Below, one piece after another: positions 27,630-28,206 of a stretch of DNA of 64,000 nucleotides; positions within the stretch are counted from its first letter, which is position 1, and each line of letters begins with the position of its first letter. This DNA comes from a virus. Its lineage: Duplodnaviria; Heunggongvirae; Uroviricota; Caudoviricetes. A model generated the notes under the pieces. That model ran no database searches, was not told where the DNA came from, and worked only from the letters and a program-made list of their open reading frames with translations. The stretch covers positions 32,001 to 96,000 of the IMG/VR virus record IMGVR_UViG_3300015615_000629, one strand, 5' to 3'. The translations under genes were made by a program, and so were the position numbers.

Positions 27630-28206
27630 AATATCTAAGAATTTGTTTTCCTCTCCGATCAATTTGCTTAAACTTAGTTTTAAAACTAATGGAAGAGATA
27701 CCTCCAAAAAGCCTTGCGTTACTATGAATTTCAGATAAAGACGCTAAAACTAACGTATAGGCGTCTTGTTTCGTCCAAACCTTACACATCGCATCAATTT
27801 CGGCCGACGAACATGTATGTAAACACATGTCCCAGCCGATTAAATCAGAAACAGTTTTGTCTCCTGTAATTTGAAAGTAAAGTTCTTTCGATGCTTCGGC
27901 ATGACCAGGAAAATGGACTTTGCCAAACTCATCTACCGTTTTTACTTTAGGTTTTCCACAGTCGTGGAATCGCAAGTAAGTGGAAATTGTTTCTAAAGAA
28001 TGTAAATTAGAAAGAATTTCCTGCTTATTTGAATTTAACCAATCGGGTAGTTTCCATTCCTTTTTCAACTCGCAATCATCTTTGAGATGGTAATACAAAT
28101 CGAAAAAGTATTCTTCAACGGAAACTCCGTGCTCGTAAACGGATTGTCCTTTAGTTTGTTCGCACATTAACATGTCACGAACGGTTTGGTCAAGCAGCTA
28201 TGTCAT
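27610..28206 (-). CDS. HD-domain protein; proposed start ATG 28206 with in-frame TAG at codon 3 (ORF track starts at 28173)
   Basis: EHG...FHDCGKP...HFPGHAEAS HD motifs; AAGGA-7nt-ATG ACA TAG CTG CTT GAC CAA ACC GTT CGT GAC ATG is in frame. Confidence 0.7.

Follow-up and report, generated by a model that had tools for sequence, protein, structure and literature searches.

A conserved early stop codon that probably places an HD-family gene and a Pth2-like gene of standard-code phages under the control of the phage's own suppressor tRNA

We analysed a 64,000-nucleotide (nt) stretch of phage DNA (the window; positions 32,001 to 96,000 of IMG/VR record IMGVR_UViG_3300015615_000629), which is part of one 572,167-bp phage contig with 40 tRNA genes. 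Its minus strand carries two overlapping genes, one coding for an HD-family protein and the other for a Pth2-like (peptidyl-tRNA-hydrolase-like) protein, and each is headed by a short leader that ends at an in-frame amber codon (TAG). We consider it probable (about 0.78) that the two genes constitute a module gated by a suppressor tRNA, in which the stop would be read by the phage's own tRNA in a phage that otherwise uses the standard code. The proposed gate is widespread and conserved and, as far as we could find, undescribed, and it would tie the orphan suppressor tRNAs of phages to two genes for tRNA enzymes.

According to this reading, ribosomes would start at an ATG led by a Shine-Dalgarno (SD) sequence (position 28206) and meet the amber at codon 3 of the HD gene. 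Translation would continue past codon 3 only if a suppressor tRNA reads the TAG, for which the phage tRNA(CUA) is the candidate, and the product of readthrough would be a 198-residue HD protein. The Pth2-like gene upstream would be gated likewise, through an SD, a GTG, three codons and the TAG at 28540-28538. Translation of the two-gene module would thus be gated by, and proportional to, stop-codon suppression.

The HD-family gene opens upstream of its amber codon

The 5′ end of the HD gene comprises the following features.

28214..28218, minus strand: Shine-Dalgarno AAGGA of the HD gene, 7 nt 5′ of the start ATG
28204..28206, minus strand: ATG, predicted true start codon of the HD-family gene, collinear with the starts of stop-free homologs
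28198..28200, minus strand: early in-frame amber at codon 3 (the gate), in the context ACA TAG C
28174..28197, minus strand: eight codons (LLDQTVRD) from the TAG to the conserved Met, a predicted coding N-terminal extension (phrog_14850 alignment and family motif)
27610..28173, minus strand: HD-family gene body, 187 codons plus TAA, opening at a conserved internal Met, which is the start in gene calls

The minus strand reads, in order, AAGGA, 7 nt, ATG (28206-28204), ACA, TAG (28200-28198), CTG CTT GAC CAA ACC GTT CGT GAC and a second ATG (28173-28171), which is in the same frame as the first and 33 nt from it. A first-pass annotation of the sequence had described this arrangement, with an in-frame ATG at 28173 that has no SD, and we confirmed it: a purine-rich SD was sought 5′ of ATG 28173 and none was found (upstream sequence TTGACCAAACCGTTCGTGAC). 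In the genome of this phage, a 5-mer SD precedes 21% of first ATGs, with a background of 3%. When the long form of the HD protein was compared with its best family match, phrog_14850, the alignment began at residue 5, and LLDQTVRD matched the N-terminal motif of the family (hydrophobic-D/E-x-hydrophobic-hydrophobic-x-x-M-L).

The N-termini of 120 HD homologs were then aligned upstream of the Met at 28173, as the first-pass annotation had proposed. Around half of them begin at the equivalent Met; the others are N-extended with a conserved pattern, and some begin exactly at the equivalent of ATG 28206. Stop-free homologs collinear with this ATG include P0043, P0052 ('MTLTF') and P0086 ('(M)TQLL'). 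Homologs starting at the equivalent of 28173 had been named in that annotation as a finding that would refute its proposals, and about half of the database proteins seem to do so, but these short forms are truncated gene calls, because their DNA has an SD-ATG-leader-TAG upstream. In the two closest relatives (L001 and L002; 59-61% identity, independent samples), the called start is preceded in frame by AAGGAG-ATG-5 codons-TAG-13 codons-ATG and AAGGAG-ATG-4 codons-TAG-12 codons-ATG, respectively. Altogether, these comparisons argue that the HD-family gene truly begins with ATG-ACA-TAG and that these codons are not a stand-alone minigene. An RNA structure able to stimulate readthrough was also sought, and none stood out (z = -0.74).

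The early stop is conserved throughout the HD family

In order to find related loci, an alignment query was required, as a search with the single HD protein gave no matches. The alignment-based scan of IMG/VR yielded 80 loci, which together with the window and two assemblies made 71 distinct sequences. Among them, 57 were gated, that is, an ATG was followed 1-12 codons later by an in-frame stop, with no further ATG ahead of the conserved Met. The early stop was TAG in 54 loci and TGA in three, most commonly at codon 3, and the leaders, mostly of 2-5 codons, were in frame with the gene in all 57. The early stop has been kept across a family that has diverged by more than one substitution per site. 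The sense codon of the leader is not fixed (Thr in 19 loci, Leu in 17, others in the rest). HD genes terminate at TAA (52), TGA (16) or TAG (1), and a TAG inside the HD body, of about 180 codons, was present in only 2 of the 71 loci (L035 and L053).

Frames made of ATG, 1-8 codons, a stop and a coding frame were counted in the window's genome for each stop (TAG 20/173, TGA 21/181, TAA 31/350). Since the TAG pattern is no commoner than the TGA and TAA ones, the instance in the window is not significant on its own, and it is conservation that makes it so. The base 3′ of the early stop was A in 36, G in 16, C in 5 and T in none of the gated HD loci, and A in 28 and G in 11 of the Pth2-like genes; for comparison, the first-codon-position frequencies of A and T in HD bodies are 0.30 and 0.22. 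A 3′ purine reportedly favours suppression, as Bossi (1983) and Miller and Albertini (1983) are said to have found.

The Pth2-like partner gene has the same design

The 5′ part of the Pth2-like gene and its surroundings are as follows.

28562..28566, minus strand: candidate SD (AAGGA) of the Pth2-like gene, 9 nt 5′ of GTG 28552
28550..28552, minus strand: GTG, candidate start of the Pth2-like gene, with the leader GTG GAA CAC ACG followed by TAG; in relatives the stop is preceded by a start codon at a distance of 1-12 codons
28538..28540, minus strand: in-frame amber heading the Pth2-like domain, aligned with the early stop of relatives
28190..28537, minus strand: Pth2-like domain, 115 codons plus TGA, with no ATG, GTG or TTG for 62 codons past the TAG
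28541..28762, minus strand: open reading frame (ORF) of 74 codons that ends at TAG 28540-28538 in frame with the Pth2-like domain; coding score 15, no Pfam family

The layout of the Pth2-like gene is that of the HD gene (SD, start codon, short leader, TAG). Instead of GTG 28552, the start could be that of the 74-codon ORF at 28762, which runs into this TAG too. A TGA at 28192-28190 closes the Pth2-like frame, whose last 17 nt overlap the HD leader. The first-pass annotation had seen this overlap with a Pth2 gene; it had missed the in-frame TAG of the Pth2-like gene and the tRNA(CUA) gene that lies outside the window.

In relatives, most loci have the Pth2-like and HD genes next to each other or fused, and both orders occur in each arrangement. 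HD precedes Pth2 in the fusions of L055, L062, L072, L077 and L223 (XacN1 ORF364), which are 279-282 aa long, and Pth2 precedes HD in those of L006, L016, L017, L024-L030, L073 and L083. A TAG was located at most 25 codons from the catalytic core in 49 of 61 distinct Pth2-like 5′ ends, at the same alignment position even among genomes only 38-55% identical. In 38 genes (37 with TAG and one with TGA) the stretch from the stop to the core contained no ATG, GTG or TTG, and the stop itself followed a start codon by 1-12 codons (ATG in 36, GTG in 2). In these 38 genes reinitiation cannot, therefore, make the domain, and the stop must be read through.

The design is also present in cultured phages. 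Xanthomonas phage XacN1 carries an HD-Pth2 fusion that opens with ATG AAG TAG (TAG at codon 3), and Ralstonia phage RsoM2USA has the design in both genes. Acinetobacter phage ME3 and Cronobacter phage GAP32 have it in the Pth2-like gene, with a tRNA(CUA) gene 0.45-2.3 kb away in these two phages (0.45 kb upstream in ME3). The HD gene of GAP32 (L224; JN882285.1, 290461-291027) has no early stop; a TAG lies about 34 codons past the conserved Met, and the annotation splits the gene into three small ORFs (GAP32_398, 398A and 399). Many GenBank records lack an annotated coding sequence for the Pth2-like gene, for instance those of Yersinia phage fHe-Yen9-04, Serratia phage BF, the Erwinia pEa_SNUABM phages, RsoM2USA and K64-1.

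Both proteins seem to point to the 3′ end of tRNA

As a single sequence, the Pth2-like protein scored 20.7 bits against Pfam PF01981, under the 23-bit cut-off (E 5e-4). A profile of 30 members, by comparison, matched the solved Pth2 structure 2zv3 with an E value of 9e-10 over positions 7-107, the whole domain, as well as 1wn2, 1rzw, 1q7s and 1xty; these solved enzymes are archaeal and eukaryotic. R11, D13, Q22, H25, F73 and E75 are invariant. The HD protein was likewise under the gathering cut-off of its Pfam family (PF01966; 12.8 versus 22 bits), and its match to phrog_14850 (7e-50) is to a family with no assigned function. It has the HD motif H...HD...H...D...H, in which H15, H70-D71, H91, D115 and H119 are invariant in 27 homologs, as is M1. 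An AlphaFold2 model was obtained with a mean predicted local distance difference test score (pLDDT) of 94.7. The only neighbours of the HD protein that were consistent in both sequence and structure were the tRNA A-adding nucleotidyltransferase entries 3wfo-3wfs (profile E 8e-4; TM 0.57-0.61). These similarities and the model suggest that both proteins point to the 3′ end of tRNA. The occurrence of HD/Pth2-like fusions in both orders is Rosetta-stone evidence and argues that the two proteins act together, a claim of linkage and not of binding.

The type of early stop follows the suppressor tRNA of the phage

ARAGORN found a tRNA(CUA) gene in the window's genome (G000) at 30802-30894 (G000:C1; L227:802-894, minus strand), 1.1 kb to the left of the window. 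A tRNA(UCA) gene is located at 286239-286310 of the same genome. Both are above the Rfam tRNA cut-off, and the tRNA(CUA) reached 49.7 bits for a cut-off of 29 bits.

We then fetched ten whole contigs and ran ARAGORN on these and on the window's own genome, 11 in all. In eight genomes (G000, G005, G006, G007, G008, G009, G012 and G015) the HD gene, the Pth2-like gene or both were of the TAG type, and all eight carried a tRNA(CUA); among them, only G000 carried a tRNA(UCA) too. The three genomes of the TGA type (G001, G002 and G003) had tRNA(UCA) in two, one and two copies, respectively, and none of them had a tRNA(CUA). For 8/8 versus 0/3, Fisher's exact test gives p = 1/165. In a tree of HD proteins the TAG state was spread throughout and the TGA state had arisen at least twice, nested among TAG clades. 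These sequence comparisons support that the stop type is matched to the suppressor tRNA of the phage, the independent events being few but in the right direction. In addition, the suppressor tRNA gene and the module are 0.4-4 kb apart in G007, G008, G009, G012 and phage ME3.

G006, G007 and G009, in which the HD gene has no early stop, had been picked as negative controls, and each of them proved to carry a tRNA(CUA) and a Pth2-like gene with an early TAG. As an extra case, phage Atu_ph07, which has a UCA suppressor, gave no match to either Pth2-like query. The proposal of the first-pass annotation that amber readthrough extends the HD N-terminus (MT*LLDQTVRDM...) is thus supported by the N-terminal motif, by the conserved early stop and by the covariation with the suppressor.

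As regards the residue that would be inserted, the only genuine CAG at the equivalent position is that of P0086 (L233), whose '(M)TQLL' corresponds to 'MT#LL' in the window, and it offers a weak hint of Gln. Reading TAG as Gln from database homologs was dropped: P0110 translates only with TAG=Q, so that its Q is an artefact of code-15 gene calling. Assigning the identity of the suppressor tRNAs from the nearest isoacceptor of the same genome was also abandoned, since the suppressors are heterogeneous and gave no consistent answer.

A separate observation concerns G001, G003, G005 and G008, in which two quite different suppressor tRNAs with the same anticodon lie side by side. They may have different acceptor identities.

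The HD and Pth2-like genes are the only recurrent families with this design in 11 genomes

We collected all frames consisting of an ATG, up to 8 codons, a stop and at least 90 open codons from the 11 genomes (n=756) and clustered them across genomes. The only recurrent families were the HD family (7 genomes, each with the stop of that genome's suppressor type) and the Pth2-like family. Other clusters were mixes of two or three members with non-matching stops and an ordinary ATG just downstream. Other internal TAGs of the window's genome were considered as clients and set aside as unconvincing, being shadow frames, repeats or the reverse complement of a tRNA.

Some further genes of the same genome deserve a record of their own. 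At L236:170-766 (G000:C1:484170-484766, plus strand) a frame reads M-L-R-TGA followed by 194 codons, with no start codon for 116 codons; its protein begins AIPTENEFKYVL and has an ExExK-like motif. No Pfam family was found for this gene (484179) or for that at 367188. An HNH endonuclease gene at L229:532-1179 (G000:C1:100532-101179, minus strand) has an SD, an ATG, 4 codons and a TAG; an ATG lies 5 codons past the TAG, so that this gene may have an ordinary start there. Finally, a truncated gene for an RF1-type release factor lies in the window at 56248-56970 (minus strand) and retains the C-terminal half of the PCRF domain, the RF-1 domain, a PxT-type 'PPT' motif and GGQ. It opens with AAGGAG-7 nt-GTG and 9 codons before an in-frame TGA (56940-56938), in a genome that has a tRNA(UCA). 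In one of its three relatives an in-frame M-S-K-S-TGA is present; in the other two, a TGA precedes the core by 26-30 codons without an intervening ATG. From these three relatives only, the RF1-type gene may be a second client, gated by UGA.

Alternative explanations and points against the proposed gate

Termination on the leader followed by reinitiation at ATG 28173 would make the TAG a real stop and the product a 187-residue protein. The in-frame ATG 30 nt past the stop is conserved (M1 is invariant), about half of the homologs are called from it, and its having no SD of its own is what a coupled restart allows. However, the same Met is also kept in stop-free N-extended forms and inside fusion proteins, Pth2-HD ones included, and is therefore a structural residue and not evidence of a restart. 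Moreover, the stretch between TAG and Met carries the family N-terminal motif, the partner Pth2-like gene, with its equivalent early stop, lacks any start codon ahead of the core in 38 cases, and reinitiation would not explain why the stop type tracks the suppressor anticodon. We consider this explanation unlikely.

Alternatively, host near-cognate tRNAs could read the stop at a basal level and thereby keep two potentially toxic enzymes at a very low dose. A purine 3′ of the stop favours readthrough in general, and the tRNA(CUA) of the window's phage is structurally odd, both of which would suit this idea. It is nevertheless hard to reconcile with the switch of the stop to TGA exactly where tRNA(UCA) replaces tRNA(CUA), in two independent lineages, or with the suppressor tRNA genes that adjoin the module in G007, G008, G009, G012 and ME3, and we judge it quite improbable.

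The first-pass annotation had also offered a minigene similar to lambda bar, in which peptidyl-tRNA drop-off would be sensed or relieved by the Pth2-like enzyme. An SD, an ATG, one sense codon and a stop are the layout of bar (AUG AUA UAA), the leaders of relatives are mostly short (2-5 codons), a peptidyl-tRNA-hydrolase-like gene is adjacent, and the leader in the window would, if unsuppressed, release fMet-Thr. Bar minigenes stand alone, however, whereas the window leader continues in frame into a conserved protein and is homologous to its N-terminus. The same holds for every one of the 57 gated loci, with leaders of 1 and up to 12 codons, and their sense codon is not conserved as that of a particular tRNA. 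In addition, the Pth2-like gene, with a stop and no alternative start, itself needs readthrough, and a drop-off sensor leaves the covariation with the suppressor anticodon unexplained. This proposal found no support and is very unlikely.

A phage that uses genetic code 15 throughout, with HD codon 3 as just one of many recoded codons, would account for the tRNA(CUA) and for some database homologs that were called with TAG=Q. Recoded phages that read TAG as Gln ('code 15') or TGA as Trp ('code 4') have been described (bioRxiv 10.1101/2021.08.26.457843; PMC9523058). They are similar to the system described here in that a phage suppressor tRNA makes in-frame stops readable, with a proposed delay or gating of particular genes; of the features of code 15, the suppressor tRNA is present here as tRNA(CUA). 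By contrast, a concentration of such stops in late, structural or lysis genes was not seen, as the HD and Pth2-like families alone recur as clients in the 11 genomes. The window's phage is not globally recoded, and the two amber codons are local features. Numerous window genes end at TAG with only 3-13 further codons beyond it, reading TAG as sense gives an ORF coverage of 0.85 for the window, against 0.89 under code 11, and frames interrupted by a stop, including early ones, show no excess of TAG over TGA or TAA in the genome. Together with the lack of TAG in the HD bodies of 69 of the 71 loci, this speaks against recoding of TAG across the genome and leaves code 15 with hardly any credit. 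A nonsense lesion (pseudogene) or an assembly error, which a C-to-T change in a CAG such as that of P0086 could bring about as one stop near the start, is effectively refuted by an early stop kept across a diverged family, in both neighbouring genes and in phages that have been cultured and independently sequenced.

The suppressor-gated module that we favour has to be weighed against several points. In the HD gene alone, the in-frame ATG 30 nt past the stop could give the 187-residue protein without suppression. The window's own TAG-C is a minority context (5 of 57) and a less favourable one. The tRNA(CUA) of the window's genome is atypical, with 93 nt, an 8-bp variable-arm stem and C as discriminator, and its charging is uncertain; those of the relatives are ordinary tRNAs of 73-77 nt. 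Around 16% of the long frames in this genome end at TAG, and efficient suppression would extend many proteins. As for the comparisons between phages, the loci are phylogenetically related, so that p-values overstate their independence, the TGA state has only two independent origins, and no module without a suppressor tRNA was found among the sampled genomes as a negative control.

Neighbouring genes in the window

A gene for a 530-aa protein with tandem GNVGGNVTGSVGSVVGAVGSVT-type repeats, tail-fibre-like, occupies 26037-27629 on the plus strand and converges on the HD gene, with the 3′ ends overlapping by 20 nt (27610-27629). On the other side of the module, directly upstream of the 74-codon ORF, the minus strand codes for a 195-aa protein (28769-29356) with a signal-like N-terminus and a Cys/Gly-rich stretch (CGHGGRGCGRGCGSGG...GSCGGGSCNGGSC).

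Discussion

Jumbo phages with the standard code, such as XacN1, Atu_ph07 (PMC6102473) and phiKp24, carry tRNA(CUA), tRNA(UCA) or tRNA(UUA). The targets of the suppressors were described as unknown for XacN1, the genome of which has two tRNA(CUA) genes (PMC5852040), and the purpose of the suppressor tRNA of phiKp24 was left open (PMC8386662). The window's phage resembles these phages in combining the standard code with a suppressor tRNA, and XacN1 itself carries the HD-Pth2 fusion with TAG as codon 3; what differs is that the targets proposed here are located at gene starts and often lack annotation. A full-text literature search for the early-stop design in HD or Pth2-like genes found no description of it. 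In recoded phages, gating of late and lysis genes has been proposed by the Borges preprint (10.1101/2021.08.26.457843), the text of which nowhere mentions a hydrolase or an N-terminal stop position. Compared with those phages, the code is here the standard one, the stop is single and within the first few codons, and the clients are two families of tRNA enzymes.

Other systems share part of the logic. In prfB (RF2), an early in-frame stop (UGA) makes a translation-related gene depend on stop recognition, with a logic of sensing and feedback; that gene uses a +1 frameshift and senses its own product, whereas here the reading frame stays the same and what is sensed would be the activity of the suppressor tRNA relative to RF1. 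The A1 protein of Q-beta and gag-pol of murine leukaemia virus (MuLV) also come from a defined stop that is read through to a longer protein, but by host tRNAs, at a C-terminal stop and with the extended form in the minority. Here, the stop is N-terminal, no useful product would arise unless it is read through, and there is a dedicated viral tRNA.

As for the reason of the gate, we favour that the enzymes would service or limit the suppressor tRNA, or clear peptidyl-tRNA that arises from suppression, so that their dose would track suppressor activity. A further and speculative idea, which we think could hold but would not bet on, is a phage circuit that would gauge and adjust how strongly stop codons are suppressed, with the Pth2-like/HD pair as its output arm. 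This feedback is conceivable because synthesis of the enzymes would need the suppressor tRNA and both would have tRNA 3′ ends as their substrate. The suppressor tRNA or its peptidyl-tRNAs could be deacylated, trimmed or recycled by them, giving a homeostatic feedback like that of RF2 but based on a tRNA. The RF1-type gene, gated by an early UGA alongside tRNA(UCA), might be a second arm of such a circuit.

The annotation of phage genomes is affected as well: gene callers truncate or miss the HD and Pth2-like genes, and some database HD proteins carry a spurious Gln. Among phages that can be cultured, some of Acinetobacter, Cronobacter, Xanthomonas and Ralstonia have the design. With the proposed gate, orphan suppressor tRNAs, which are common in standard-code jumbo phages, would gain a specific and conserved target in two genes for enzymes of tRNA ends. 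If true, this would be a natural gene switch run by a tRNA, in principle the same as that of synthetic amber-gated genes.

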